DNA of 64,000 nucleotides. It comes from Smutsia gigantea (taxonomy: Eukaryota). A program made the translations under genes and the position numbers. A model generated the notes under the pieces. The model searched no databases. It worked only from the letters and a program-made list of their open reading frames with translations, and was not told the DNA's origin. This document shows, piece after piece, positions 13,401 to 51,249 of the stretch (the stretch's first letter is position 1; each line of letters opens with the position of its first letter). The DNA lies in assembly GCA_032199065.1 (NCBI GenBank), contig JAVSCE010011590.1, forward strand, positions 236,551-300,550, read 5' to 3'.

Positions 13401-14163
13401 CTCTGGGAGCACAAACCTACATTTCATGGTGCTTGCATGATACTCTCCTAATTAGGGGGTTGGAAAGCTAAGAAAGACAGAATTCCTGGAGAGACTGAGA
13501 TTCCAGCTGCTTGTGGAAAGCAGGGATCCATATCTGGCTCTCTGGGACAAAAGAAAGGCAGGCACTCTGAGAGACTTCTTAACTAAGAAGCCCCTAGCAA
13601 GAGGGCTGCTAAAGGGGCAAGGATTGCACAGAGTTTACTGCTCAGGAGAAGGGTCAGGTAGACAAAATTGTCTGGGTGCACTCTGCCCAGCAGGTTGGGA
13701 GCTTTCACAATCTTCAGGTGCTCACTCCAGCTCCCTGGCTGCCTGCACAGCTCCAAGAACCCCTTGCATGATAGGCAGTCTACTGCGCCTTCTCCTGGCC
13801 AACCCCTCCAGGCTCGTAAACCTGGAAACCCTACCCTGGTGTTAGCCCAGCCAGGGGGAAGATCTGTCTATAGCAACTAAAAATGCAAAGCGCAGACGCT
13901 TATACCTGTGTGCTCGGCCCACTGGCTCAGGCAGTGGAGACAGGCATAGCAGCCGGGAAGCAGGAAACAGCTCTTTCCTCCCCCCAAGGCACCAGTACCA
14001 CTCCCCTGCAACCCCCGACATTGCTTCAGGGGCTGAGCAGCTCCAGAGAGTAGAGCTTCAGGACACTAGAGGGCGCCATACACAAATATGAAATGCCAAA
14101 GGAACCTGGTCCATAGTAAAATTATTAATACAACTCCTGAAAATATTTAAATGATATGACCTC

Positions 14164-14958
14164 ATGACTCTCCCTGAAAGGGAGTTTAAAATAAAAATCA
14201 TTAACATGCTCATGGAGGTACCGAAAGATATTCAAGAACTCAGGAATGAATTCCAGTCAGAAATCCAATCATTGAAGAACACAATGGATGGTATTAAAAG
14301 CAGGTTGGATACGGTGGAGGAGACGATAAATGAAATAGAAACTAGAGAAGACAAATACAAAGAAGCTGAGACACAGAGAGAAAAAAGGATCTCTAAGAAT
14401 GAAAGAATATTGAGAGAACTGTGTTTCCAATCCAAACAGAACAATATTTGCATTTTAGGGGTACCAGAAGAAGAAGAGAGAGAAAAAGGGATAGAAAGTG
14501 TCTTTGAGGAGGTAATTTCTGAGAACTTCCCCAATCTGGGGAAGGAGATAGTCTCTCAGGCCATGGAGGTGCACAGATCTCCCAACACAAGGAACCCAAG
14601 GAAGCCAACACCAAGACATATAGTAATTAAAATGGCAAAGATCAAGGATAAGGCCAGACTATTAAAAGCAGCCAGAGAAAGAAATAAGATCACATACAAA
14701 GGAAAGGCCATCAGGCTATCATCAGACTTCTCAGCAGAAACCTTACAGGCCAGAAGGGAGTGGCATGATGTATTTAATGCAATGAAGCAAAAGGGCCTTG
14801 AACCAAGAACACTTTATCTGGCAAGATTATCATTTAAATTTGAAGGAGGGATTAAACAATTTCAAGATAAGCAAAAGCTGAAATTGTTTAATTTACCACC
14901 CACAAACCATCTCTACAGTGTATTATGGAGGGAGAGCTATAGATGGAAGGGTTGCTAA
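14164..14958 (+). CDS. L1-A ORF1, intact at 264 aa, encoding ORF1p (N-terminal coiled coil, central RRM-like domain, C-terminal domain).
   Basis: Track ORF 14164-14958: MTLPEREFKIKIINMLMEV...ERILRELC...MAKIKDKARLLKAARE...LEPRTLYLARLSFKFEGG. Confidence 0.85.
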   Translation: MTLPEREFKIKIINMLMEVPKDIQELRNEFQSEIQSLKNTMDGIKSRLDTVEETINEIETREDKYKEAETQREKRISKNERILRELCFQSKQNNICILGVPEEEEREKGIESVFEEVISENFPNLGKEIVSQAMEVHRSPNTRNPRKPTPRHIVIKMAKIKDKARLLKAARERNKITYKGKAIRLSSDFSAETLQARREWHDVFNAMKQKGLEPRTLYLARLSFKFEGGIKQFQDKQKLKLFNLPPTNHLYSVLWRESYRWKGC

Positions 14959-21700: not shown

Positions 21701-24148
21701 AAAGCCACAACTTCTGTGGGACGCAGCAAAGGCAGTTCCAAGAGGAAAGTATATTGCAATCCAGGCCTATTTACAGAAGGAAGAACATTCCCAAATGAAT
21801 AGACAAAAGACACAATTACTGAAATTGGAAAAAGAACAAATGAGGCCCAAAGTCACCAGAAGGAGGGACAAAATAAAGATCAGAGAAGAAATAAATAAAA
21901 TTGAGAAGAATAAAACAATAGAAAAAAATCAATGAAACCAAGAGCTGGTTCTTTGAAAAAATAAACAAAATAGATAAACCCCTAGCCAGACTCATTAAGA
22001 GAAAAAGAGAATCTACACACATAAACAGAATCAGAAATGAGAAAGGAAAAATAACGATGGACCCCACAGAAATACAAAGAATTATAAGAGAATATTATGA
22101 GAATCTATATGCTAACAAGCTGGAAAGCATAGAAGAAATGGACGACTTCTTTGAAAAATACAACCTTCCAAGACTGACCAAGCAAGAAACAGAAAACCTA
22201 AACAGACAAATCACCCGCAATGAAATTGAATCGGTAATCAAAAAACTACCCAAAAACAAAACCCCCGGACCAGATGGATTCATCTCTAAATTCTACCAGA
22301 CATATAGAGAAGATATAACACCCATTCTCCTTAAAGTTTTTCAAAAAACAGAAGAGGAGGGAATACTTCCAAACTCATCCTATGAAACCAGCATCACTCT
22401 AATACCAAAACCTGGCAAAGACCTCACCAAAAAAGAAAATTACAGACCCATATCCCTGATGAAAGTAGATGCAAAAATACTCAACAAAATATTAGCAAAC
22501 CGAATCCAAAAATACATCAAGAGGATCACACACCATGATCAAGTGGGATTCATCCCAGGGATGCAAGGATGGTACAACATTCGAAAATCCATCAATATCA
22601 TCCACCACATCAACAAAAAGAAGAACAAAAACCACATGATCATCTCCATAAATGCTGAAAAAGCATTTGACAAAATTCAGCATCCATTCCTGATTAAAAC
22701 TCTCAACAAAATGGGTATAGACGGCAAGTACCTCAACATAATAAAGGGCATATATGACAAACCCACAGCTAACATCATACTTAACAGCGAGAACCTGAAA
22801 GCTTTTCATCTAAGATCGGGAACAAGACAGGAATGCCCACTCTCTCCACTGTTATTCAACATAGTACTGGAGGTCCTAGCCACAGCAATCAGACAAAACA
22901 AAGACATACAAGGCATCCAGATTGGTAAAAAAGAAGTCAAATTGTCACTATTCGCAGATGACATGATACTGTACATAAAAAACCCTAAATACTCCACTCC
23001 AAATAATTCTAAAATTCATATGGAACCACAAAAGACTCCAAATAGCCAAAGGAATCCTGAGAAGGAGAAATAAAACAGGGGGAATTATGCTCTCTGACTT
23101 CAAGCTCTACTACAAAGCCACAGTAATCAAGACAATTTGGTATTGGCACAAAAACAGACCCACAGAGCAATGGAACAGAACAGAAAATCCAAACATTAAC
23201 CCAAACATATACAGTCAATTAATATTTGATAAGGGAGCCTTGGATACACAATGGGGAGTTGAGAGCCTCTTCAGCAGCTGGTGTTGGAAAAACGGGACAG
23301 CTACATGTAAGAGAATGAAACTGGACTACTGTCCAACCCCATACACAAAGGTAAACTCAAGGTGGATCAAAGACCTGAATGTAAGTCATGAAACCATAAA
23401 ACTCTTAGAAAAAAACATAGGCAAAAATCTCTTGGACATAAACATGAGCAACTTCTTCATGAACATATCTCCTTGGGCAAGGGAAACAAAAGCAAAAATG
23501 AACAAGTGGGACTATATGAAGCTGAAAAGCTTCTGTACAGCAAAGGACACCATCAGTAGAACAAAAAGACATCCTACGGTATGGGAGAACATATTCATAA
23601 ATGACGTATCCGATAAGGGGTTGACATCTAAAATACATAAAGAACTCATGCACCTTAACAAACAAAAAGCAAATAATCCAATTAAGAAATGGGCAGAGGA
23701 CATGAATAGACACTTCTCTAAAGAAGAAATTCAGAAGGCCAACAGGCACATGAAAAGATGCTCCACATCGCTAATCATCAGAGAAATGCAGATTAAAACC
23801 ACAATGAGATATCACCTCACACCAGTGAGGATGGCCAACATCCAAAACACAAACAACAACAAATGTTGGCGAGGATGTGGAGAAAAGGGAACCCTCCTAC
23901 ACTGCTGGTGGGAATGTAAATTAGTTCAACCATTGGGAAAAGCAGTATGTAGGTTCCTCAAAAAACTCAAAATAGAAATACCATTTGACCCAGGAATTCC
24001 ACTCCTAGGAATTTACCCTAAGAATACAGCAGTCCAGTTTGAAAAAGATAGATGCACCCCTATGTTTATATCAGCACTATTTACAATAGCCAAGAAATGG
24101 AAGCAACCTAAGTAATAAATAAATAAATAAACAAATAAATAAATAAAT
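18732..24148 (+). mobile_element. Nested LINE-1 (L1-B), about 5.4 kb, inserted into the L1-A ORF2 with a 14-bp TSD aatgggcagaggat (18718-18731 and 24149-24162). It has a 5'UTR, a broken ORF1 (19690-20226, 20235-20540) and an ORF2 in 4 or more frame pieces. It is 3'-truncated within ORF2 (...KWKQPK) and ends in (AAAT)n rather than a normal 3'UTR.
   Basis: It starts ttaaagatggcggtgtgagaggtgagacagaggcttcc. ORF2 pieces are at 20836-21105, 21033-21935, 22057-23073 and 23087-24115. The end is aagcaacctaag then taataaataaataaataaacaaataaataaataaat. Confidence 0.85.
24113..24148 (+). repeat. (AAAT)n microsatellite forming the 3' tail of L1-B.
   Basis: taataaataaataaataaacaaataaataaataaat. Confidence 0.8.
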
Positions 24149-30436: not shown

Positions 30437-30989
30437 TCACCCAGCAGGTTTGTTCTGGTGCCGTGTAGGAACCAAAGCCGTGCCCTGCACAGGGGGCAGT
30501 GCCAGGATGCAGGCGGACAGCTCAGCCTGAGGCCTTGGCAGAGTTCCCAGGCAGAGCCATCGGCCCAGGCCGGGACAGTAAGCATGGATCAGGTGGGAGA
30601 GGGCATAAGTCCGGTGGCTATAGCCCCCCAGCACCAGGAGCTCCCCCTGCAGCGCAGCACCTGCAGCACCCACATGGGGGGAGGGCAGGGGTGCCAGGTG
30701 AGTCCAGCTATCAGTCCTTGGTTCATAGGCCTCAAAGCTCAGCAGGTCCCCAGTCTCACCTAACCCGCCTGCCACATATAACCGCCCACCTAGAGCAGCC
30801 GTGACATGGCCAGCCCGAGGTACCCCCATAGGGCTCAGAAGTGTCCCCGGCTTCTCAAGCTTGGGGTCGTAATGCAGCAGTGAGGCCAGGTATTGACCAG
30901 TCCCGCTGCAGCCACCGCTCACATACAGTCGGCCCTCCAAAACAGCAGCGGCGTGGGCAAAGCGAGGTGCGGGAAGCGCAGGTGCTGGC
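30437..30989 (-). CDS. KLHL-family gene, last coding exon (Kelch repeats, stop at 30437-30439).
   Basis: Minus-strand acceptor ctcttctcccttag then gccagcacc. It translates to RPAPALPAPRFAHAAAVLEGRLYVSGGCSGTGQYLASLLHYDPKLEKPG...GRLYVAGG...GELLVLGGYS...TALVPTRHQNKPAG*, with GG-doublet and Y/W Kelch blade signatures. Confidence 0.7.
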
Positions 30990-31065
30990 CTAAGGGAGAA
31001 GAGGGCACAGGGTCAGCAGCAGTCACCTGCAACTCTCGTTCCCTTCCAGGTCCCCTAGTCTCTCT

Positions 31066-31234
31066 CCCTGCTCACCTCCAGACATTGAGCTCGGGGTCAT
31101 AGGCCTCCACAGAGTTGAGGGCAACACCCCTGTCTCGTCCACCCAGGGCATAAAGTTGTCCGTCCAGAGCCACCAGGGGAAAGAAGCTCCGAGCCTGGCA
31201 CAAAGGCGCCATCTCCTCCCAGTCCTCTTGACTG
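31066..31234 (-). CDS. KLHL-family gene, internal Kelch exon.
   Basis: Acceptor ctctgtccag then gtgggacc; donor ctggag then gtgagcagg. It translates to (R)WDPSQEDWEEMAPLCQARSFFPLVALDGQLYALGGRDRGVALNSVEAYDPELNVWR. Confidence 0.7.
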
Positions 31235-31355
31235 GGGTCCCACCTGGACAGAGTGGGACAAGAGATGGCAAGAGTGACCCTAGGAGTCTGTGGTTGGCTG
31301 GGCCTGCAATTTCCCTCAGCTCCACTCTGGGGCCTGCCACCCTTGGGGCTCCTAC

Positions 31356-32280
31356 CTGAGAGTGGAAGCCAGAATGTTGGAGTCGCTGTAGAAATCCTGT
31401 CCACCACACACGTAGAGTTCACTTCCTGCTAGGCTAGCAGCCCCATGGCGGAAGCGCCCTGGGGCAGGCAGGGCTGGCAGCTGCCCCCACTCCACAGTCC
31501 GAACCAGTCCCGTGCCACAGCAGAAGGCCCGGGCCCACCACACTGCTCGGGATGGCTGCCTTATGGCCATGTCCGATCGGAGCCCATCCCCGCCAATCAC
31601 TACCAGTGCCTGGTCAGGCTCCCTCCGCCTCTCTTGACCTGGAACCTCAGCCTCCACCATCAGCTGATGCAGCAAGTCAGGCGACAGGGGCGGAGGCAGC
31701 CCGGCTGCCCGTACCCTCCGCAGCTCTCTAGTGGACATACGGCCAAAGCGGACACATCGCAGCAGGGCCTTGGCCTCCGACTCCTGGGTCTCGGGGTTGG
31801 CAGCGAGCCAACACCGTGCAGCCACAAAGGCTTCGAACTCCTCCTGCACATGTAGCTCATCGCTGTCTAGGAGTTCAGCCAGACGGGCAGCCGGTAAAGA
31901 AGGGAAAGTGGAGCACAGAGCCACAGCAGGCAGGTGCATGAGGAGGTAGTGACGGGCTTTGCTCCACAGCCTCTCCAACCCCGGGACTTCAGCCATGGGG
32001 AGCAGGGCCAGGCAACGGGCGGGGCTGAGGCCCTGTGCCAAGGCTCTCTGGCACAGGGCCAGGCAAGAAGCACTCTGGTACTGCAGAGCAGCCTGGGCCG
32101 CTCGCAGCAGTCCTGGCCACCGCGCCCGAATGACCCCAGAGTAGGCAAAAGAGACAAGGAGTCGCAGGTCCTGGGCAGAGACGGTGTGTAGAGACACCTC
32201 TGTCCCCTGGGATTCCCTCATCCCGCTCAGGAGCATGGCCCCAAAGAACTCGCTGCCACAGGCCAGTGCTGCCCGGTGCA
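31356..32280 (-). CDS. KLHL-family gene, large exon encoding the C-terminal half of a BTB domain, the BACK domain and the first Kelch blade.
   Basis: A textbook acceptor (ccctctctgcttctcctccttgcag) sits at 32281-32305; the donor is ctctcag then gtaggagcc. It translates to (V)HRAALACGSEFFGAMLLSG...LVSFAYSGVIRARWPGLLRAAQAALQYQSASCLALC...ARCLALLPMAEVPGLERLWSKARHYLLMHL...ALVVIGGDG...GSELYVCGGQDFYSDSNILASTLR. An in-frame TAG lies 9 codons upstream of the acceptor, so the exon must be spliced. Confidence 0.75.
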
Positions 32281-34379
32281 CTGCAAGGAGGAGAAGCAGA
32301 GAGGGGTCCAGAATGCTGCAAACTGCTAGGCACTATCCCGACTTCACAACCCCGGCTCTGGGCCAACCACCCAAGGCCACAGGCCCAACCATGGTGTGCA
32401 TCAGAATGCCATGGGGTGCTTGATAAAATACAGGTTTCAGAGACCCACCCCCACAGAGTCTGAGTCAGTCACCTGGATGGATACCCTAGGGATTCGTATT
32501 TTAACATTTTCAAGCACCCTGCATGATTCTCATGTTAGTGGCCTGAAGATACTGTGCTAGACATTGGTTTAGTCTTTTTGATCCAAGTCAGTTGGAAAGT
32601 CTTGATGGATCAAGTTGAGAAGATGCTACAGACAGCATTTGAGAATAGACAAAATAAACTGCAGAGACCAGTTGCAACTTATACAGGTCTCTCTACATTG
32701 TGCATGGAATAAAATTCCTTTACAATCTTAAGAGCCATTGACATCAGCCATTCTGTTAGACAGATTATACTCAGAAAGTGATACCACATTCAGGGATGGC
32801 TGTAACCTAACTTCTTCTAACTGACATCTCCTCTTGCCCAAGACCCAGTGCTTAAGATTTTCTATGTATTCTAACTCTTTCCCACACACACTCCACAGCT
32901 GCCCCAGCCCCGCCTCCAGCCCACCCCATCTCAGTATAGGTCATGGAATCATGACTTTTTTTTTGAATCATGACATTTTAAACTGGAAAGCTTTAAAATC
33001 ATCTTGTTCAAATGTTCTTTTTTAAGATAAGGAAACTGAGTCCTAGAGGAAGGAAGGGATCTATTTTCTATTCTATTGGTGGCTCTCTGGACAGATCTTC
33101 ACCACCCACTGTCACTGATGTCAGGCTGTTAGTACCCTATTTATCTACATGACCGACATGACACTGAAACTGTTCTATTAACAAGTGCAGTTAAATAACT
33201 GGACCTCATATGCTTTCTAATTGAGATACTTCACATCAAAAATGGAATATTCTGACCAAAATATTTAATTTAAATCTAATCAAATCTTTAGATCTAATTT
33301 CAAGTTCAAAGGAAATTGAGAGGCTAAAGGAACAAATTAAACAAAAGGGAAAACACACGCAAATCTGGATAACAGATCTCTCAATAGGATAACCTGTCTT
33401 GTTTCTTCAATAGGTCAAATCTGAAAAAAAAAAAAAGGAGAGAGGACAGTACAAGAGTAAAGGAAGCTTGGGTAGTGAACATCGGAGCACAGCATGGTCC
33501 TTGATTGGTTCCTGGGTTGAACAAACCAGCCCTAAAAGAGATTTTTTTGGACAAGTGGGGCAATTTCTGTGTGGATTAGGCAATATCCTTTAATAATAAT
33601 TCCTTTTGTTAATTTTGTTGGACATGATAAAGATATTGGGGTCATATGAGAAACGGTCCTCTTTTAAAGAGAAACACACCCAAGTATTTATGAGTGAAAT
33701 GTCACAGATTTACTTTAAACTTCAGTAAAAGCAAAATAAAATACGGAGATGAAACAGATATAGCAAAATGCTCATTGTTAAGTCAGGGTGATGTTTGTGT
33801 CCTCCTCAAATTCCTATGTTGAAGCCCTAGTCGCTAATAGGTTGGTATTTGTAGGTGAGGCCTTTGGGAGGCTATCAGGTATGAGAGTGAGACCCTGTGA
33901 ATGGCATTTGTGGCCCTATAAGGGGAGACATGAGAGATGATTCTCCCTCTGCCATGTGCGGATACAGTGAAAAGGTGGCCTCCTACAAACCAGGGAGAAG
34001 ACCCTAACTAGAACCTGACCATGCTGGTACCCTGATCTGGGCTGCCGGCCTCCAGAACTGTAAGAAATACCTGTAGGTACAAGACCCAGGCTATTTTTTT
34101 TTAAGTAGCCCAAGCTGACTAAGACAGGATGATTTTTCTTCTGGGAATCCCAGAAACACTTTTGAGTCCCAGTCATTCCTCTCATAGGCTGCAGCTATGT
34201 GACGTCAGACATGTCTTGAAGTCTGACTTCTTTATCAAAGTCTAAGAGCTGAACTAGTTAATCTCTAAGCCAATCCCTTTTAGTTTTAAACTGTTATGTG
34301 TCTGTATTCTGACTCCATTTGCCAGGTCCTGTGTGTCTGGTCCTGTGTGTCTTTGCTTTGGCTGTGTAGAAGGCACTGC

Positions 34380-34590
34380 ATGGCCTAGTGAAAGTAGACT
34401 GGGCTAGTGGGCGTGAGCTTGTATCCAAGTTCTCACCAATTAACATCTCTGAGTTTAATGTTCTTTGTCTGCAACTAGCGATAATAGTACTTACCTCACT
34501 AGTTTTCAGGGAGAATGAAAAGAGATAGCATGTGTGATAAAAACTCGTGGTTCCCAGTACCTCACTAAGTGAACGATCTGAATACTCAAG
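34380..34590. repeat. MIR relic in the KLHL intron.
   Basis: ...tgtctgcaactagcgataatagtacttacctcactagttttcagggagaatgaaaagagatagcatgtgtgataaaaactcgtggttcccagtacctcactaagtgaac matches the MIR 3' half. Confidence 0.5.
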
Positions 34591-35298
34591 GCATGCAATA
34601 CTCCTTAGCTTTCCTGCTGATGAGCAGAGTTGACTTCAAAGTTCCATGGCCTGGGAGCCTTAAGATTCTGGCAAAACAGTACCAGACCCTGCTCATTAGC
34701 TGAAGGATCCACATCTGCCATGGTGTCAAGCACACTTAGGTGAAAGGACACGCTGGTTTTTTTTCTGGCTTTTCCTGTGTCCTAAATAGAAGATGCCAAG
34801 AAGGGCCTTTGGTTAATCCCTGTTTGAGTCAATCACTTTCTGCTTGTTCTACTGGCATGAACTGTACCTTTAGCTCTATCTAGCCAGCGGACTGGAAATT
34901 CCTTGTTGCTGGGCACAGGAAAAGCCACAGTGTGGAAGGTCAGCTTAAATCTGTCTGAGCTCCCAGAAAAACAACTCAACTGCGCATGCCCCGCTCTCAG
35001 TGAGTCAGGAGAGGCACCCAAGGCCACCCCAGGGAAATTCTGACTATAGCGGGGATCAAAACCACTATGGTAGGGATCAATCCACCTGCTGCTGGCACAC
35101 CCCATTCCGGCGGCTTATGCACCTGCAGCGATGTAATGCCACACAGGTGCTCACCCAGCAGCCGGCAGCCACCTGCCTCCAGTTCCAGGTCGCACCCGGT
35201 GCCCTCTTGGTACAGGAGCTCGATGCTGCGCAGGTTCTCCTTCAACTCTTCTGCCTGGCTGGGCTGCTTTTCATCTTCCCGCCTGCCTCCAGTCCCCT

Positions 35299-35689
35299 CA
35301 CGTCTCCACTGGGCCGCGGCCTTCACTCTGGGTGCTCCTAGGGCCTCGGCCGCTTCCAGTACACCCCCCCAAGGGGCGGGGCCCAGCACCCCCTCATAAG
35401 CAAAGGTCAGTACGGCTTCCCAGGCCCCCGGGGCCACGTCGAGACTAAAGGGGGGTCGTGGACCTCCACCGCCCAGCAGCCTGCCTCGGAAGAGGCTGCT
35501 AACCGCAGCCAAGATCACCCGATGCACCCCGTATACTCGCCCCCCGACTGACACCTCTTCGTCCACCAACAGCTTTTGTTCCCGCAGCCGCTGCGCCTCC
35601 GCAAAGAACTGGCTCGGATGCTCCTCGCTGCGCAGCGCTTCGGACTCCGCCCCACCTTCTGCGTCCTCCTCTTCCTCCTCTAGGGACAT
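35299..35689 (-). CDS. KLHL-family gene, candidate first coding exon (ATG at 35687-35689, acidic N-terminus, then a complete BTB-like segment). The 3' boundary is unresolved; a candidate GTGAGG donor lies near 35298 and the track ORF runs on to 34997.
   Basis: MSLEEEEEDAEGGAESEALRSEEHPSQFFAEAQRLREQKLLVDEEVSVGGRVYGVHRVILAAVSSLFRGRLLGGGGPRPPFSLDVAPGAWEAVLTFAYEGVLGPAPWGGVLEAAEALGAP..., embedded in a CpG island. Confidence 0.5.
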
Positions 35690-36560
35690 GGCTGGAGAGG
35701 GAAGGTTCCTGGGGCCACGGGCCTGGGGCCGGTCTCTTCCAGAGGAAAGGGGGGCAGACGGGGGTCCTCGTCGGGGGACGGAGGCCAGAAGAGGGCTCTC
35801 GGGGCGGGCAAAGCGAGGCCAGGGCCGACCTTTGTGACCGGAAGAGAGGCGCCCTCGGGGACCGAGGCACGAAGTGCGGACTCCGAGATGCTCCCGGCCT
35901 AGGTTCGCTGCATAACTGCAGGTGAGCAGAGGAGAGGGGGTCCGAGCTGGGCCCAGAGGGCAGCCCGGCCTGTCAGTCTCTCTCCCTACTTCAACCCTCC
36001 TCTCCCCACCTCCAGTCCCACCTCCAGGCTGGAGCCGCTAGGCTACACAGCGCAACTGTGAAGCTGCCGAGGTGCAGCGAAGGATGTAAGAGGGGTGTGT
36101 GAAGGTCCAGTGCCCCTTCCTGACCCCAACCTGACAGTCCCCCTCCTGAGACAGCGTTCTGCTGGCCCTCTCACCTGAACCTGCTCGGCTTTGCACCGGC
36201 TGGCGGAGGACACTAGCCCCTCACCCGGCCCGCGGCCCTACCCGGCTAATTATAGCCGGCGCTGGCAGGCTAGGGGCTGGACTCCAGGAGCCCGACTCAG
36301 ACACCCAATCCGCTGGGCCGCGTCCCGAAATGACCTTCTCCCCGCGTCCACCTGTAGGTCGCCTCTTAGCGCTGAGCGAGGCAAATGTGGAAGCCAAGGG
36401 GGATGCGGGAATAGGGTGGACTGAGCCTGGTCAGAAAAACTGCGTTGCCCGGACCCGGCTGGAGGGGCGACGGACCCCGCAGGGTCTGGACCACGCAGAC
36501 CCGCCGAACATGACGCGAAAAGAGTAAAGCGTGCATTTTGGGTCAGTCCTTGGTTTTGAC
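35300..36560. promoter_or_regulatory. CpG island covering the KLHL 5' exon and the intergenic interval to the divergently oriented SLC12A3-like gene. It is a candidate bidirectional promoter.
   Basis: High GC and CpG density across 35300-36560 (gcggccgaggccctaggagcacccagagtgaaggccgcggcc..., ccggccgcggccc..., gacgcgaaaagag). The first recognisable SLC12A3-like coding sequence begins about 1.5 kb from the KLHL ATG on the opposite strand. Confidence 0.6.
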
Positions 36561-38465
36561 TGTTGTTTTTCTGTGAACAATACTGAGGTGAAATGCAAAC
36601 GTAACCAGGCTGGGTCCACCGAGGGCGGAGGTTGGGGGAAGTAAAGGGAGGGCGGTCAGGGCTAGGATCCTAAGTGACCGGGATTTCTTCCCAGTCCCGA
36701 GGTAGGTTCGGTGGTGAAACAGCGAAACCCAGCCCTGCGTCTTCAGAAGGAAGGAGTCTGAGGGAATCTGATCTCACCTTGGTCGCTGGGATGAGGACCA
36801 ATCTCCGCAGCTGCGGGGACCGGAGTCCAGGGCTGGATGGGCCGGGGGCGCGATACCGTTTTTTTAAATTGAATAATAGTTCACGTACAATGCTATATCA
36901 GTTTCAGGTGTGTAACACAGTGACCCAAACTCGCTGTTTGAGGCAGGACACCAATAGCCACCTCCTCTGCCAGGGCCAACACTCCTTCCTCATCTTGAGA
37001 CACCCCTAATTCTGGGCAATCACTTTTCACTGCAGTTCATTTACCTTCATGCGGAAGGAGTTGAGGGAAGCGGCATCGCTGCCCCTTCCCTGAGGAAGAG
37101 GTAGGGACAGGTCAAGGGCTGCTGGGGGCGGATACCCTGTCCTTTAATAAGACTGGTCCAGGCTGGATAGATAGGACAAGCTGGCTTAACCAGGGATAGA
37201 AACACGATTGTCTCTCTGCACTCAGGTGAGAAGGGTGGTGCTCATGTGGGGGGGGTGGGGGTGGGGCGGGAAGGTGGGCTGCTCCGCACAGCACCCTCCT
37301 CCAGCTTTGGGGAACTGTCCCCAGCTCCCCACTTGCCGGTTGGGTACCCGCGCCCACCCAGAGGCAGAGCAGTGTAGCTGCGTGCTGCACTCCCCAAAAT
37401 GGTTCAGTGGAGAGAGGCAGCCTGTGATTGCCTGGACAGAAGGGGCGATGATGACCAGCCTCTACACCCTCTCCCCCATCTCAGACATCTCGGACCACTC
37501 CTATGGCTTCCTCGCAGCAAGACAACGCGGCCAGCACCATGAGTCCCCATCTTGAAGAGAAGGAGCCGCCATACCCCAGGTCGGCATCTGCCCTCCCACC
37601 ACCTGAAAGGACAAGAACACTGGGCCACACTCTGAGTCCCATGCCGGCTCTACAGTCCTGGGACAGCTTCATTGCAGTGAGACTCCGGAGGCTCTGTGCA
37701 GCAATGCCACGGTGAGACCCACGACCCCCCAGTGAACACAGAAGGCTGGATAAAGCCTGCTGTTCTGGGCCATCAGCCACCCTCCATTAAGGCCCTGGGA
37801 CTGACCTCCCCCCATAGCACCTCCAAGTATGTTAGCTGCGGTCCTGGTCCCTGACTTAAGAGCATCCGTGCTGTCTTAGTCACACGAGAGCACAGCATCC
37901 ATCTCCACAGAGGAGCCCCACACCCAGCCGCACCCCCAGAAAGAGGATCTGGATAATTCGTGGGCCAGGCCTGACAAGGCCCAGGGCTGCCTCACCGGAG
38001 TCATGGTACTGGGTGATGCTCAGGGTTCCCCGAGTTAGGGGATCTAGGTGGGGGAGAGAACGTCACTCCGGAGGGGCTCTTGAAGGGTGGGGCTGAGGGT
38101 GACCCCGGTTCCTCACTCACCATCCTACTCTCCTAGACATGCTGTCTGCTCAAGAGCTGGGGCACCACCCTCTTCCTGCGGCCGCCTTCGATCACTGCTC
38201 AGGCGGGCATAGGTGTGGGCTCAGGGCTCTGCTGGGTAGCAGGGGTTCAGGGACCCTGGGAATGAGTTAAAGGGTCCCTATTCCCATCTCCACCCCAGGG
38301 CTCACATGGCTCATTACTCTGCTCTCAGCTTCAGTCCATACTATCCCCAGCCTGTCTATCTCAGCCATTTCCACCAACTGCCAAGGCAAGGCTGGTGAGT
38401 CTGCTGCAGTTCCATCATCTCTCAGGGTCCCTGGTTCCGTCAGATGCAGCCAAAACCACATCTTC

Positions 38466-38516
38466 CTCTCCTCTCCTCTCCTCTCCTCTCCTCTCCTCTC
38501 CTCTCCTCTCCTCTCA
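38466..38516 (+). repeat. (TCTCC)n pyrimidine microsatellite that forms the polypyrimidine tract of the 38518 acceptor.
   Basis: tcctctcctctcctctcctctcctctcctctcctctcctctcag. Confidence 0.85.
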
Positions 38517-38867
38517 GGTGGCAGGTACTTCTTTATCTTGCACAGCCTGGTTCCCGAACTTGGCGAATCCATCGGGATCATCTTCGCTTTTGCCAACACA
38601 GTAGCTGTGGCTATGCACACAGCAGGCTCTGCAGAGACCCTTTCGGATCTGCTCTGGGTAAGGCCCATCCCTCCTTTGGTTGAGTGCAGCCTGCAGTCAT
38701 TTTAAGAATCAGATGGAGGCATCAAATCAGAGAATGAAGTCTCTGTGACCCTCTACCTCTGCCTTCCAGGAACATGGGGTGCAGCTGCCAAACATGGATC
38801 CCAAAAATGAGTTTCGGGTGATGGGTGTGGTGACTATGACCATCCTTTTGGGCGCGGCACTGGCCGG

Positions 38868-38932
38868 TATGGAGTGTGCGTGTGTGTGCGTGTGCATGTG
38901 TGTGTGCACGCGTGTGTGTGTGTGTGTGCAGC
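38868..38932 (+). repeat. (GT/GC)n dinucleotide microsatellite directly at the 3' end of the 38770 exon.
   Basis: atggagtgtgcgtgtgtgtgcgtgtgcatgtgtgtgtgcacgcgtgtgtgtgtgtgtgtgcag. Confidence 0.85.
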
Positions 38933-41900
38933 TGGCACAGCAGATTCCCAGGGGCCGAGACCTGCACCTGGACAGTTTTGCTGGAGGAGACTCCACACAC
39001 CAATTCCTCAGGGGACAAGTAAGGAGGACTCATTCCGAGGCTCTGCTGGGGCAAGCACTAACAGGGCTCCCAGATAAGAAGTGCCCTGTCACCTGCTCCC
39101 AGATATTTACAGTCTTGAGATGTGCCCCTCTGGCATGGGAAGGGACACTGCAGTTTGAGGCAAGAAAGAAAAGGACACCATTTAGCCAGACTCTGGGGAA
39201 GAGGCTGGCGGGAAAGGGAACCAGAGGATGGGAGAGGAGAGGGAAGATGAGACAAGGAGAGGGAGGAGGTGAAGTAGTTACTCCTTCCTTTCCACTCATA
39301 TTTCTCCTGTTTGTTTGTTTTTATCTCCCATAGTATATAGGCCCAAATGATCTCCTTCTTCCTGATCCTCCTCTCTTTTATCAATTACCTTCTGGGGACA
39401 CTCCTCCCCACACACCCCAGCTGACAAGCCACTGGCTTCTTTGGGTACCAAGGTAAGTCAGTGGGAAGCTGGCTGAGAAGTGCATTAAGGGGCATGAATG
39501 CCTCAGAATGTCATTTTTCCTTGGAGCAGGGGACCTCATTAGCCCAACCCTCCTCAGAAAAGCCCCCTTCACTCTGATTCTATATGCCATCTGCGATCAT
39601 TAGGAGACCTCTAAGTCCCTGGGCTGGCTAGTTTACAAACTTCCCTTCTTCCCAGCTCAGCTAAGTTACTGACACTCAAGTGTGTAGAGGGGTAATGGTG
39701 TTGGCTGAATGAAGGGAAGCCAGGAGGTTCTACTCAAAACACCATCTTTTCTCTCTGCTCCTTTGTAGGAAGTATTTTCTTGGAAAATACAGTGCCACAG
39801 CGGCATGGTCCAGAAGGCAGCTTCTCGGGCATGTTTTCCATCGTCTTCTCCTCAGCCACTGGGATACTTCCCAGGACCACTATATCTGGCGACCTTAAGG
39901 TGAGAAGGATGTCCAGGCACAGAGCACACACTCTCTCCCCTCCTCTACCTTCACTAATAGTTCAAGTTTTGTTCCCAGGACCTTGCTACTGCTATCACCA
40001 AAGGAACCCTCCTCGCCATCATGTGGACCACACTTTCCTACCTGGGCATCTCTGTCACCAACGGTAAGGCCCTCCACTCCTGCCTACTGTGCACCGTGAC
40101 CTGGAACCTTTGATTTCTGCTTCTCTGAGGAGCTAGGGTATAGGTGATGAAATGAGCAAGTGGCATTCATCAATCACATTCAAAGTAGTTTACCCCCCCA
40201 CCACCAACATTTCTCCCCATCCCTCATTTCATTAATGAATTGTAGGGCATTCTTTGAGCATCCAATTTCATTACCCCCCAACCCACCATGCACACATACT
40301 TCCAATCTCCCCTTTAACATGAATGGTACCCAGATAGATCTACTGTGTTGGGATGGGGGTCTCTCCCCATGAAGGGGTGTGCATCTTTTATCTCATTTCC
40401 AGGTTCCTGTATGATTCGAGATGCTTCAGGAAATATCACTGACATGGGTGTGCAGAATGGGAGCTGCATGGGGCCAGAGCGTCAGTATGGCTGGGATTTC
40501 AGCAGTTGTCGAGAACAAAGGACCTGCCACTATGGGCTCTCTAATTACTACCAGGTGAGTGAACCAGAGAAGAGTAGGGAAATAAATCTTACCTAGCCCA
40601 TTGTCCAGCACAGAGAAGATGCTCAAAGGGAAGTAATGACTTAAGTGAATTCATGTGCGTGGGGTAAAACTCTCAAAAATGGAATAAAATATAATACACC
40701 ATGCAACTTCTGGGAAAGCAAGGTAAAAAGATGGGTGGAATGCCTTGCTTCTGGAATGCACTGATTTCTGCCTCTGCCTGCCATTCTCCACAGGCAATGA
40801 GCATAATACCTGCTTTCAGCCCCCTGACGTCTGCTGGAATCCTCAGTGCCACTCTGTCCTCTGCCCTTTCCTGCTTTGTTTCAGCCCCTAAAATCTTCCA
40901 GGTTAGTTGGTATCTTACCAAGAGGCTTTGGAGAGAAAGGAGAGAATGTACATAGACAGTGCCATCCCAAGGTATAATTTTTGGGGGAGGAGGAGCAAAA
41001 GAAGACCCAGTCTCAGCAACCAGGGCCTACATGGTGACTGAGGGAGATGGAGATGACTGTGGTTGGCTGGTGTTTAAGAGACAATCTAAGTTCATATAGC
41101 AACATTCAAAGTCTGCCCATAAATCAAGGCAAAGTCTGGGGAGGGATCACTCTTCCATCTGCCTCCTCTGTTTTTCCCACCTCACATTCTCAGGGATGTC
41201 ACTACACTCTATTCCATCTATCCATTCTTCCTTTTAAGACCCCTAAGCTCCCTCGGCTCTTCTCTCTGTACTCCTCACTCCCTCTCACTGCTCTGGAGGA
41301 GCAGGGGGCTGTCATTCTCCCTCCTCCTGGGACCCTCCCCAATGACAGCCATGCCTTTGTACAGCGGCTGTGCCAGGATAAGCCATACCTGGTCATCGGC
41401 TTTCTGGGGAAAGGCTATGGCCAGAAACATAAGCGTGTGCGAGGCTGTCTGTCCGCCTTCCTCATGGCTGCAGCTTCCTCCTTGCTGGCAAGCGCTCCTC
41501 CTCCACCCAGGCTCATTGACCGCCTTTCCCCTCATGCCCCCCACTCCCTACCTAAAGCATCTTTTCTCTCTAGTCCTGAAAGTGGGTGGAAACACCTGCT
41601 AACTTGGTGGCAGTGGTGGTGTTTGTGATGGTGGGGTGGGGAGTAGGGAACAGGGAGTGCAGGGACGGGGAAGCCCGAAGATGTCCTTAATCCCCTAGAC
41701 CTGGATCCCATGACCCAGTTTGGAGACTAACCCCTTGACCTTTCATCTCTCTCAAAGCTGATCTGAACACCATTGCCCCCAACATCTCCAACTTTTTACT
41801 CTGTTCCTATGCCCTCTTTCCACGCTCCCTTCGTCAGTTGCCTGGTTAGTATGGGCAGGTGTTGGGGTCAGGCCCAGGGCTGGGAGGACCTGGGAGAATC

Positions 41901-44900
41901 GGAGAAGCATCCTTGAGGTGCAAGGGTGGGTGGTACTGAGGCTGGGACAAGGGACGGGTTGCATTTGCTCTCCTCTGCAGGCTGGCACCCCTCCTTCCGC
42001 GGGTACAGTCCCTGGCTTTCCCTCCTGGGCTCTCTGCTCTGCCTGCGCATTCTGTTCCCCCTCACTTGGTGGGCAGTGCTCATCGCCATGTTGCTTAGCC
42101 TGCTGCCGCTGCCGTGTGCGTTCTACAAGAAGCCTGGTGAGTGACAGGGCAGGTAGCTACGGGAGTGAAGGAGTGAGACACAGCAAGAGGCTGACCCCCA
42201 CTAGAAGCCCAGAACTATCCCACCTCTAATGGTTCTGCACCACCCCTTCCTCTGCGCAAACATGAGCGGGGGCCCTGTGGTCCAGGCGGCCTTCTGTCAC
42301 ATGGCACTGTCCTACTCAGTGAACCCGACCAATGCGCAGGACCATATCAGGAACTTCCGGTAAGGGAGTCCCTACACAAGCGCTTGAAACCTGGTGGCAT
42401 CTGGACTGCAAATGGGTTTTGTTCAGATTACACAGCATTTAAAATTTCTAAATTAGTTGCCAACATTATGTATCTGGGGTCCTGGCGCTCCATCCACATG
42501 ACACACTTGGCTGGAGCCAACAGCGGCTGTCCGATGGGATACGGCAGGTACTCTCCAGTTTGTCACAGTTCCCACCTGGTTCACTTCATTCTTTGTTATT
42601 ATATGACTGGTTCTTGCAGGCTTTGAGTTTTCAATTCCTGCTCTAGACTAAAAGGAAGCCAGTTTCCTAAAGTCTGGCAGGGGCAGTGGAGGAGAAGGAA
42701 GGGAACAGAGTCCGAGCTGGGTAGAGATGGGTTCCCTGAGGAGGGGGTTCTCCATGGCAGGACAGATGCTACAGGATCTGGGTCCCAACCTCCCTCACTG
42801 GGTTGTGAGGTGGAGAGGCCTCTCTAACCCTCATGGTTTCTCCCTTAAAATCCTCTATAAAATCCCCCATTGGGTGGGGAAGAATTGCTTACTGCTTGAA
42901 CATTCCCCTACCTCTTTCTCCATAGGCCACAGTGCCTGGTTCTCACAGGTCCCCCCAGCCAGCATTCAGCCTTGGTGGATTTTGTGGGGGCCTTCACCAA
43001 GAACACGAGTTTCATGATCTGTGGGAATGTGGTCTCGGTAAGAGAAGTGGGAATGGGAGGGGACTGGGTTGGAGATTCTAGACTGGAGGGAAATAAAAGG
43101 AATGAGAAGATCCACAGGTCAGTGGGCTCAGGGAACCTGAAAAGTGTGAGGGTCAAGCAGGATGCTGAGGGACTGTCCCCAGCCTATATTTCTGCCTCCC
43201 CTTCTTAGGACCCCCAAGCTACTCAAGAGTCCAAGAATCACGTCAAGTGGCTCAATGTCCAGAAGGTTCATTCATTATACGGTCATATCTGTCCCCAGGC
43301 TACGTTCTGGGGCACAGAGCCTCATGCAGGTCAGCTGCCACACTGCATCCTTCTTGTCACCCTTTTGCCCAGCGTGTCATATCCCCTTCTTTCCTTACTG
43401 CCTCTCCTTTCAGGTGGCAGGTCTGGGCCACCTGAAGCCCAATCTGCTGGTCTTAGGATATAAGGAGAATTGGCAGGAGGTGCCAATACCAGCTGTGGAG
43501 GACTGTGTTGGCATTCTGCGGTAAGCGCTGGGAGGAAAGGTGAAGATGGGCTTAGAAATGGTGAGGAGCCAGAGGAAGAAGAAACACAATCATGGTGAAG
43601 CCCTTTTCTCTCCAGCTGCTCAGCAGCCCCTATATGCCCAGGAAGGGGAACATCCCTCTCGTCAGCTCTTGCTCCTAATCTCCTTTTTTCTTCCCCATAA
43701 AGAGATGCCTTTGACCACAACTATGGTGTCTGTCTCTTAAGGATGCCAGGGGGGTAAGCCTGGCTACCCAGCTTCAAACTCAAGGTGAGTCAAAAAGGAG
43801 TGGGCCTAAGAGGAGGATAAGGTGTGGGAGGTATAGAGACTGGCCGTCAAAGACAGTCAGGGAGCCAAGGGCGCTCGTTTAGTTACCAAGGCTTGAGGCT
43901 GAAGAGAATCAGGTCCTAGGATGTGAGAAAAATGAATTTCACTTGGAAGATCCTACCTATAGGCTTAGCTCTCCTGAAACCTTAGGGATGGGGGAAAGCT
44001 CTCAAGTTATCTTCTCAATTCAGGGGGCAGAAATGTGAATTAGGAGATACCAAGTGGGAGGGTGAGGGAGAGCTGGAGGGTGGTCAGGAAGGATATGGCC
44101 CAATCCCAGAGCAGGATGTCCGGCACTATTCCAGTCCTATACTACCACATCGAACTAGCTTACACTTGGGGGTCCTCACTGAATGGCTGGGCTCAAGGAA
44201 GGATGCAAAAGACAACTTCTTTTGCATTATACCTCCACATTTCCCAGTAAATCCAAGGGGTTTGGATACCATAGGTATGGATACTCAGCAGGGAGAGGAG
44301 ATGAATCCTAAAACAGGGTTTTAGAGAAAACAGTTTTGGGAAGTGGAAAGAGTAGTAGGCACCCAGTAAAATGGACAGAAAAGGGAATGTGGTTAGTCAA
44401 TGGAGAGAAAAGCCATATGGCACTTCTGTGGGATAGCAACAATTTTCTTCGGGGAGAGGGGAGGTATGATATTCAGTTGGGAGTAACTGCTCAGCTGGGT
44501 AAGGAATTTGTCTCATTCTTTCCCTTTTTCTTCTTGGGCAGTATCCTTACACTGGCAGCCTCGAACCTTGTTCTGCTCCAAGCAGGGCCGGTGGACAGTG
44601 GACGTGTACTGGCTCAGCAGTGATGGAGGTATTGGACTCCACGGCTCTCGAAAAAGCCCCAACTCCTCTCCAAGTTCCAGAGAACAAGAGTGGGAGGACA
44701 GGGATATAAAAACTAGGGAGGACTTCAGAACAAACTCTGCATTTACCAAGTACCCAATGCTCTCCTCCTACCTCAGAGGCCTTTGCTCTCTTCCCAGTCC
44801 CCAGGGATAGTGGGCAGGGAGGCTGCCTTCCTCGCCTCCCCTCCTCACAGGGCTGATGCTGCTGAGCCCCTTTCTACTGACGCACAAGAAAAACTGGGCT

Positions 44901-47410
44901 CAGTGTCCCGTAAGAGTTTTTGTGAGCAGTCCCCCTGAGTATCTGGAGGAGAAACACACCAGTGAGCAGGACATGAAAACCCAAGGTTATGCCTAAAGTG
45001 CAGAAGCCAGGAAGGGGAGGGGAGGGTGTTGGGCCACTTGCCCAGATGGAGGGATAGGAAAAGGTGCTGGGAAATGTAGGCAAATGTCCGGTTCCTCTCT
45101 CGTCTTGCCCTAGGATACGTGCCCTCCTCAGAAGGTTCAGGCTTGGCTCCCAGCATGTGACTCAACTACCTGACCTCACAGGCAAACCTCAGGACATGAG
45201 ATCAGGACCCAGCCCCTGCCCCAGGGCACTCCTGCTCTGCCTGCCCTCCTTCTTCACAGAATAGCAAGGAGCAAGTGTCAGACAAGCTATATTCTAACAA
45301 GCAGTGGGAGGAGGAAGTGAACCTTGAGGACTGTGGTGGGGAGTAAGCACAAGTAGCTATGGGCTCTACTTACATCAGAACGGGGTTATTCTTACCAGTT
45401 TGGAAAAATCAAGGATCTTAGGCAGCAAAACAGAGAAAAACTGTAAAGTGAGGAAGCTTTATTTTTCCTAAATTCCTAAGGCAGACATTTCAGGGAAAAG
45501 ATACTTCCTGCTCCTTGCTGAATCTAGAGTTTCTTTCTCTGCAGCCAAAAGGCTTTCAAAGACCTGGTGGCCTTACACCAGTTGCAAAAAGCACCACCAA
45601 AAGGGAGACTTGGAATCTACTTCTCTGAGCACTCCTGCTCCTTCAGGCTACATCTCTGAGTGGGATCTGCAGGCAAACCAAAAGCAGGTACATAGGAACA
45701 GGGCCAGCAAGTGGGGCAACTGTCTCAGAGTACAAGCTGATAATGGCACATACCCTGCCCTCTGCTCGGTCTTCCCAACCATGTAGTCGGAGTGGCACAT
45801 GTGTCTTCGTGAAGTCCTATGGCAATATTCCCAGGACGCTGCCCTCATAGTTATGTGAGTGTGGGAAAATGCCAAGCTGCAGGGCAAAGATCCCAGGGGT
45901 AGGGCTGGACCAAAGGCTAGATAAGCTGAGAAACAGGCCGCATTCCTCACGCTGCCTTCCTTAACAGGGGCCTGCCTATGATCCCTCGGTCAGCCTGCCC
46001 TGGGGCCCTGTGCATGGCCTGGCTGGAGATGCTGTCCAGGGGCCTGACACCCCCCATTGCCTTCATCCATGGGCATCAGCAGGACACACTGCCCCTGTAC
46101 CACCAGTGAGAGACTGAGGAGAGACTGAGCCCGGAGGAGAGGCCCACACCTCAGCGCTCAAGGAGCCATGATCTTGGCTCAGCAAACTTGGCGGGGCTGT
46201 CCTTGGGAGGCCTCAAGCAAGAGCCCAAAGCTTCCTAGGAAAGAACTTCCATTCTGAGCGACACCGAAGGGGTGACAGTGCTAAGGAAGATCCTCCATCT
46301 CACTCCATGACATTAATAAAAGCCTAATACCCAAGGCTAATGTGTAATAATATGCTTGGTTCCCATTTATAAAATCAACTCCCCACGCCTGCAGGGAAAG
46401 AGATCATTCCTGTTCTCAAGTATTTTCAAGGAGAGGAATTTATCTTCTATCTCCATCCCAAACTGTTTCACCCCTAAGTTTCTGATTTTGAAATTCGATG
46501 TTTTAGCACATGTTCGACCATTTATGGGTCTATACTTGGTAAATGAAAAAGTGTTTAGCACCACTTTCTACTTAATAACTCATCAGAAACTTACTCTTTT
46601 CCCAACCTCATATGATCTCAATTCTTTTTACCTTTCAGCTTATCTCCCCCATCAGCTTATTCATTCATTCAGCAAATACTAATTCAATGTCCACAATGCA
46701 CCAGATCCTATTCTAAGTACTGGGAAATGATATGGTGATGAATGTGACAGGCTAGTGATCCCCTCCTCTCACAGAGTTTATGTTCTAATAGGAGAAGATA
46801 ATAAACATAAAGAGAACTTTAAGATTAGAAGGTGATTAAGCACTACCAAGAGAAACGAAACAGGGGAGGGGGCTCGAAAGTGCTGAAGAAGTGCAATTTT
46901 AAGTAGGTTTGTCAATTTTAAGTAGACCTCACTGAAAAAGAAAAAATGTTGAGACAGACTTAGACATGGACTGAATTACATCTGAGGGAAGAGCTTCTCA
47001 GGCAGCGAGAGCAACAAGCATAAAGACCTTGAGGGGCCAGCACAAGCCCACCTTCAGTGTGTAAAGAAAACCCCAAAAGCCAAATTTGCTGGAGCAGAGT
47101 GAACAAGGTGGTAAATACCAAGAAATAAGGTCAAAGCAGTAAATAGGGAGGGGTGGGGCAGATCCTGGAGGGCCTTCCAAGGACTGGTTTTTACTCTAAT
47201 ATGGGAAAACACAGAGGATTTCGAGAAGAGTGACATAATCTGGCTTCTGTGTGAACACTGTTCACTCTGGCTGCTGTGTTGAGTATTGCAAGTGGGCAAT
47301 GATGGAGGCAGACAGACCGGCTATTGCAATCATCTTGGAGATGGATGATTCTGGCTCAGTCTAGGGTGGCAGCAGTGGAAGTGAGGAGAAATGGGATTCT
47401 AGATATATTC

Positions 47411-50739: not shown

Positions 50740-50844
<105 letters not shown>

Positions 50845-51030
50845 TTAGTTTTGGCCATTTCCCCATGGCTGGGCTGTACACTACATGTGCATTTACTTAG
50901 GAAAATGAAGTGGAGGTGTAGGGGGCAAAGACTGGGAAGCAAAAACTAGTATTTCTCAAAGCCCTTAGAGATCCAGAATATCAAGAGGAAGGTGCCCATG
51001 CCCAAGAATAGGGAGGAAGAGCACAGCTCA

Positions 51031-51249
<219 letters not shown>

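Follow-up and report, generated by a model that had tools for sequence, protein, structure and literature searches.

In this study, we have analysed a stretch of 64,000 nucleotides from the pangolin Smutsia gigantea (contig JAVSCE010011590.1, hereafter the window), in which an exon of a gene of the SLC12 transporter family carries an in-frame TGA. Using a number of different comparisons with horse, donkey and rhinoceros, our investigations point with high confidence to the region from about 37.5 to 46.1 kb on the forward strand being an unprocessed, intron-containing unitary pseudogene of SLC12A10 (NCC2/NCCbeta). The TGA, at 39422-39424, is not an isolated defect: it is one of about eleven disabling changes in the gene.

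Identity of the locus

By protein identity and by gene order, the locus is the mammalian SLC12A10 orthologue, with its introns retained, and not NCC (SLC12A3). A search with the concatenated exon translations returned as closest proteins, at 74-75% identity, two horse records named 'solute carrier family 12 member 10', a rhinoceros 'SLC12A3-like' protein and the Smutsia 'hypothetical protein MC885_003943', whereas true NCC proteins were only 57-59% identical in the same search. Horse SLC12A10 (BDR32795.1) is 74% identical overall and 89% identical in exon 6; over 452 aligned residues, the figures are 74% to horse SLC12A10 versus 58% to bird NCC. Furthermore, positions 30162-51333 of the window are colinear over 21 kb with the rhinoceros locus, in the order KLHL33(-), SLC12A10(+), OSGEP(-), with a nucleotide identity of 76-83% over most of the length and of 68% just upstream of the SLC12 gene. 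On the OSGEP side, the TsaD-type exon at 51.0-51.2 kb (-) gave a single-exon Pfam match below the cut-off (21.5 vs 24.8 bits). NCC lies at a different locus, adjoining NUP93 and HERPUD1 in human. Once repaired, the conceptual protein matches both AA_permease (PF00324, E 2.7e-59) and the SLC12 C-terminal domain (PF03522, E 3.5e-89), and because both domains are matched, the locus is a decayed full-length gene and not a fragment.

We delimited 24 exon remnants (Table 1, with our own exon numbering) using tblastn searches with horse and donkey proteins as queries, together with a pairwise alignment against rhinoceros DNA. The boundaries of exon 1 were derived from the pangolin-rhinoceros alignment and from three-frame translations. 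Its ATG (MASSQQ...) aligns with rhinoceros MASRQR..., and its 3' end (...AQGCLTGVM, then GT) matches rhinoceros ...PLYFDWVRGVM, then GT, with a 9-nt deletion in pangolin. In the three-frame translations no frame is open from this ATG to the donor, and NCC N-termini searched against the window by tblastn found only a weak trace of exon 1. At the other end of the gene, the terminal stop (46107-46109) is positioned as in NCC (...TFYCQ*, the asterisk being the stop).

The stop codon of exon 6 and the other lesions

A preliminary description of this DNA had reported the TGA within an exon that it aligned residue for residue with NCC, and the translation and the position of the stop proved correct in every detail. 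Direct reading and translation of 39341-39452 give, in the frame then stated, AQMISFFLILLSFINYLLGTLLPTHPS*QATGFFGYQ, with the TGA 81 nt (27 codons) into the exon, an acceptor AG at 39339-40 and a donor GT at 39453-54; SLC12 resemblance was sought in the other two frames of this interval and none was found. The colinearity holds as well, since a phmmer search of the PDB with the 37 residues of the exon gave a gap-free match to human NCC residues 284-320 (E ~2e-5), the match to NKCC1 being far weaker. With this E-value and that of horse SLC12A10 against the exon in tblastn (E 2e-14), the homology stands far above chance. The downstream junction invoked in support of the frame, FFGYQ and then GSIFLEN, was found as described, GSIFLEN opening exon 7 at 39769. 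A metagenome scan with a conserved 22-mer of exon 6 gave no match.

The codon that preceded the stop can be read from the orthologues. At this site rhinoceros DNA has CCCAGCCGACAAGCC where the window has CCCAGCTGACAAGCC, and the horse, donkey and rhinoceros proteins all carry arginine (PTNPSRQATGFFGYQ / PTHPSRQATGFFGYH), within a motif, PT(N/H)PS-R-QATGFFGYQ, that is local to the stop site and common to equid SLC12A10. The TGA is thus not shared with these related species. As rhinoceros has CGA and the orthologues have arginine, the stop is best read as a C-to-T change at a CpG, the commonest type of point mutation in mammals. The preliminary description had placed the stop at a D/K position, which is true relative to NCC; however, SLC12A10 has R at the site of the D/K of NCC, so the ancestral codon should be judged against arginine and not against NCC. 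In exon 4, the last codon (38655-38657) is TGG (Trp) and horse has arginine there (LLDLLR), the rhinoceros copy being too diverged at this point to polarise the difference. This may be another CpG-type change (CGG-to-TGG), as would be expected if CpG sites were decaying neutrally throughout the gene.

The TGA is the first in-frame stop 3' of exon 1, and the disabling changes of the gene comprise this one nonsense codon, five frameshifts (exon 11, -1; exon 16, -2; exon 18, -1; exon 20, -1; exon 22, +1), three losses of a splice dinucleotide and a 15-nt deletion. The exon phases agree with one another only once the pangolin-specific changes are reversed. Exon 11 has lost 1 nt near 41472/41473 (123 vs 124 nt in rhinoceros, with horse and rhinoceros identical at the reference ...FLIAVGFILT), and its donor at 41488-41489 is GC, not GT. 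Exon 12 measures 87 vs 102 nt, the deletion taking VNFGC out of a transmembrane segment, and the acceptor of exon 14 (42258-42259) reads AA against AG in rhinoceros. Two nucleotides are missing from exon 16 near 43275/43276 (121 vs 123 nt), where the frame switches between ...NVQKVHS and YTVISVPRLRSGAQSLMQ, and one from a G-run of exon 18 at ~43749-43754 (82 vs 83 nt), after which the ancestral frame runs into TAA at 43755-43757. Exon 20 is 1 nt short near 44957 compared with rhinoceros, where the length fits both the phase of exon 21 and the size of the turtle and NCC proteins; the donor of exon 21 (45201-45202) is AT vs GT in rhinoceros. In exon 22, an extra nucleotide in an A-run (45599-45602) switches the frame between QKAFKDLVALHQLQKAPPKG and DLESTSLSTPAPSGYISEWDLQANQKQ, as comparison with the donkey protein confirms; both donkey and rhinoceros keep to one frame across the exon. 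Finally, a GT/TG microsatellite (38874-38930) has taken the place of the last four codons of exon 5 (WESK in horse and rhinoceros) and of its donor. In intron 3 (38464-38515) there is a perfect (TCCTC)x10 repeat that rhinoceros lacks. We rejected one further candidate lesion, a stop (YKN*GG) with a frameshift after WLSSDGG (44630-44720): with more homologues, tblastn placed this stretch within an intron and the genuine following exon at 44851-44961.

The TGA had been presented as the strongest single piece of evidence for a pseudogene. It does support that reading, which at least ten further disabling changes in the same gene now strengthen, but the frameshifts and the splice-site losses are equally decisive. 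In our model, an ancestral arginine codon, CGA, would have become TGA at 39422-39424 by a C-to-T change at a CpG, as one of many neutral disabling mutations gathered after loss of function in the pangolin lineage. An ancestrally spliced transcript would stop at the TGA, inside the transmembrane domain; if the TGA were bypassed, the transcript would leave the frame in exon 11 and then meet further frameshifts and dead splice sites. Skipping of exon 6 was considered as a rescue and rejected, the loss of its 112 nt shifting the frame. Based on these lesions, we infer that a full-length transporter cannot be made. The probable direction of each change is read from the comparison with horse, donkey and rhinoceros, and the loss of SLC12A10 is presumably to be timed within the pangolin lineage.

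Table 1. Exon remnants of SLC12A10, the in-frame stop of exon 6 and the flanking synteny anchors, in window coordinates
Feature	Position	Strand	Remarks
Exon 1 remnant (N-terminal cytoplasmic domain)	37503..38008	+	alignment to rhinoceros
Exon 2	38137..38212	+	TCCLLKSWGTTLFLRPPSITAQAGI, AG/GT splice sites
Exon 3	38299..38394	+	frame intact
Exon 4	38518..38657	+	frame intact in pangolin; 1-nt deletion in rhinoceros
Exon 5	38770..38874	+	EHGVQLPNMDPKNEFRVMGVVTMTILLGAALAGME; 3' end lost to microsatellite
Exon 6	39341..39452	+	112 nt, AG/GT splice sites, 91% identical to rhinoceros
In-frame TGA	39422..39424	+	probable C-to-T transition at CpG; CGA (Arg) in rhinoceros, R in horse and donkey proteins
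Exon 7	39769..39899	+	frame intact
Exon 8	39979..40063	+	frame intact
Exon 9 (large extracellular loop)	40403..40554	+	SCMIRDASGNITDMGV...GLSNYYQ, frame intact
Exon 10	40794..40901	+	frame intact
Exon 11	41365..41487	+	1-nt deletion, donor GC
Exon 12	41758..41844	+	net 15-nt deletion
Exon 13	41981..42136	+	WHPSFRGYSPWLSLLGSLLCLRILFPLTWWAVLIAMLLSLLPLPCAFYKKP, frame intact
Exon 14	42260..42359	+	acceptor AA
Exon 15	42926..43037	+	frame intact in pangolin
Exon 16	43209..43329	+	2-nt deletion
Exon 17	43414..43520	+	VAGLGHLKPNLLVLGYKENWQEVPIPAVEDCVGIL, frame intact
Exon 18	43703..43784	+	1-nt deletion
Exon 19	44542..44628	+	(V)SLHWQPRTLFCSKQGRWTVDVYWLSSDG, frame intact
Exon 20	44851..44961	+	GLMLLSPFLLTHKKNWAQCPVRVFVSSPPEYLEEKH.., 1 nt short
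Exon 21	45114..45200	+	IRALLRRFRLGSQHVTQLPDLTGKPQDM, donor AT
Exon 22	45545..45687	+	1-nt insertion
Exon 23	45787..45854	+	SEWHMCLREVLWQYSQDAALIV(M)
Last coding exon	45968..46109	+	GLPMIPRSACPGALCMAWLEMLSRGLTPPIAFIHGHQQDTLPLYHQ*
KLHL33 coding exons (synteny anchor, outside the pseudogene)	30440..36037	-	Kelch, BACK and BTB_KLHL33 domains (Pfam)
OSGEP-like exons (synteny anchor)	50740..51249	-	colinear with the rhinoceros gene carrying PF00814

Selective constraint and competing explanations

Judged by its sequence, SLC12A10 is under relaxed constraint in pangolin. Its exons are 84.1% identical to rhinoceros and its introns 82.0% (aligned columns), and at residues invariant among 15 intact NCC, NKCC and fish SLC12A10 proteins, 39 of the 141 covered positions carry a different residue in pangolin and a further 15 are deleted. 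Radical changes are frequent among the replacements (G>C, G>V, G>R, P>L, F>S, H>P), and in exon 2 the near-invariant motif LRLPWITAQAGI has changed to LRPPSITAQAGI. The dN/dS against rhinoceros is 0.49 (397 indel-free codons), an average over both lineages, of which the rhinoceros copy is also a pseudogene.

Some of our observations weigh against a pseudogene. A dN/dS of 0.49 is below 1, so that part of the pangolin-rhinoceros divergence accumulated under constraint. Horse SLC12A10, which is presumed functional, itself differs at 25 of 149 'invariant' positions, and for this reason the count of substitutions alone is weak evidence. For the changes in exons 20 and 21, polarity is set by the rhinoceros copy, which is also a pseudogene, and by the lengths of the turtle and NCC proteins. 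Lastly, everything is drawn from one assembly, in which any given lesion, the TGA among them, might be an error.

Among the alternatives, a pseudogene that is still transcribed and keeps a residual role survives best, with a slim chance of being right. The decayed locus might be transcribed in pangolin, for example in the gonad, where the horse gene is reportedly expressed, and its 5' part might then act as a regulatory RNA or encode a truncated protein, a short membrane peptide that the TGA would terminate. In favour of this, the start-codon region and most of the splice sites can still be recognised in pangolin. Against such a role, exon 1 has no open frame, no constraint is detectable in the exons relative to the introns, and our first protein search returned no long transcript-derived pangolin protein besides the genome-annotation model.

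It is very improbable that the gene is functional and that the TGA and the other lesions are errors of sequencing or assembly. Besides the dependence on a single assembly, this explanation can draw on three indels in or beside short homopolymer runs, which are sites of long-read error (the G-run of exon 18, the A-run of exon 22 and a CACAC in exon 20), and on the gene model deposited for the locus, KAK2498915.1. However, assembly error does not typically produce such a mixture as a C-to-T substitution, three substitutions in splice dinucleotides, a 15-nt deletion, a 2-nt deletion outside homopolymers and a microsatellite covering the end of an exon. There are also many radical replacements at family-invariant residues, and the exons are no better conserved than the introns. 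It is the variety and the number of the lesions that make a functional gene so unlikely. As for the model KAK2498915.1 (MC885_003943, Smutsia gigantea), it is composed of strings identical to the translation of the window. Over 38146-42136 (+), it misreads exon 6 as YIGPNDLLLPDPPLFYQLPSGDTPPHTPQLTSHWLLWVP, omits a portion of exon 5 and treats both intron 10 and sequence after exon 11 as coding, and it dodges the TGA only through this out-of-frame exon 6 and a retained intron.

No greater probability attaches to the locus being NCC (SLC12A3), whether the gene itself, a recent duplicate or a retrocopy, even though NCC is the best match among solved structures and 'SLC12A3(-like)' is the name automatically given to the rhinoceros and donkey orthologues in NCBI and UniProt. 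For all its decay, the sequence is 74% identical to horse SLC12A10 and about 58% to NCC, all introns are kept, which speaks against a retrocopy, and the position between KLHL33 and OSGEP is that of the rhinoceros SLC12A10 locus. The label 'SLC12A3-like' given in the preliminary description is to be refined, the gene being specifically the SLC12A10 orthologue. Weakest of all, and scarcely credible, is the suggestion that the TGA is recoded (as selenocysteine, by programmed readthrough or by A-to-I editing of UGA to UGG) and the transporter still made: TGA is the selenocysteine codon and the leakiest stop codon, but an Rfam scan of the whole 64-kb window at gathering thresholds returned 0 matches, to SECIS or to any other family, the orthologues carry Arg at this position and not Cys or Sec, and the five frameshifts that follow, from exon 11 onward, and the three dead splice sites are beyond repair by recoding one codon, so that the readthrough or editing first proposed as a way out is not upheld.

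Surroundings and comparison with known systems

Upstream of the pseudogene, KLHL33 (30440-36037, -) has apparent long open exons, with open reading frames (ORFs) of 191, 326 and 346 aa carrying the Kelch, BACK and BTB_KLHL33 domains, and is oriented head-to-head with SLC12A10, about 1.5 kb separating the end of its GC-rich 5' exon from the exon 1 remnant. Large LINE-1 insertions occupy ~13.4-24.9 kb (+) and ~52-64 kb (both strands). The first of these regions includes an ORF1-type piece (Transposase_22 and dsRBD) at 14155-14955, a second ORF1-like copy from near 19672 and a reverse-transcriptase ORF at 21922-23070; past 52 kb, many L1-like ORF fragments break up the region downstream of the OSGEP exons. 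A GC-rich stretch at 5557-6363 (+/-) has long ORFs on both strands that gave no Pfam match. This stretch may be a CpG island or the promoter of the next upstream gene, presumably TEP1 by human gene order.

The kind of gene loss seen here is ordinary and has already been described for SLC12A10 in mammals. SLC12A10 is the second Na-Cl cotransporter gene of bony vertebrates. According to the passages on this gene in PMC11381001 and PMC11145369, citing Motoshima et al. 2023, it is kept in fishes, amphibians, reptiles, platypus, horse and zebra, whereas birds and most mammals have lost it by deletion or pseudogenisation; in various mammals the locus still holds a pseudogene. That the horse gene is functional is likewise taken from the account in PMC11381001. 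Pangolin thus joins the many mammals with a decayed SLC12A10, and the loss in itself carries little biological weight. It may be an independent, lineage-specific event that is perhaps not individually documented.

The rhinoceros copy is instructive in this respect. Its lesions (exon 4, -1 nt; exon 5, TAG; exon 14, -5 nt; exon 15, -1 nt; exon 16, TGA) include none common to pangolin, so that the two genes would have decayed independently, and as the rhinoceros copy is broken, SLC12A10 has been lost within Perissodactyla too, though it is kept in equids. In white rhinoceros (JH767728.1, 8692-16915 of the extracted locus), annotation splits the copy into two protein-coding fragments, XP_014635850.1 and a model of 253 aa with an SLC12 domain. 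Like KAK2498915.1, the rhinoceros 'SLC12A3-like' models are annotation artefacts on pseudogenes. The practical value of our analysis lies in annotation: these models are unfit as evidence for a functional NCC paralogue in these species.

Among known systems, the closest to the pangolin locus is equid SLC12A10 (horse BDR32795.1, donkey A0A9L0ISN3), with which it shares the exon phases, the AA_permease and SLC12 C-terminal architecture and the highest protein identity. The clear difference is that the equid genes, known from cDNA-type records, have an open frame with arginine, whereas the pangolin copy has a stop and about ten other lesions. SLC12A3 (NCC) is a paralogue of the same fold, to which exon 6 aligns residue for residue and with which the position of the terminal stop is shared, but it is only about 58% identical, lies at a different locus and has D/K where SLC12A10 has R. 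The nearest parallel to the fate of the gene is found in the SLC12A10 pseudogenes of most mammals, where the same gene, as in pangolin, has been left as a unitary pseudogene between its neighbours; that the pangolin lesions are unlike those of rhinoceros fits the published picture of repeated independent loss.

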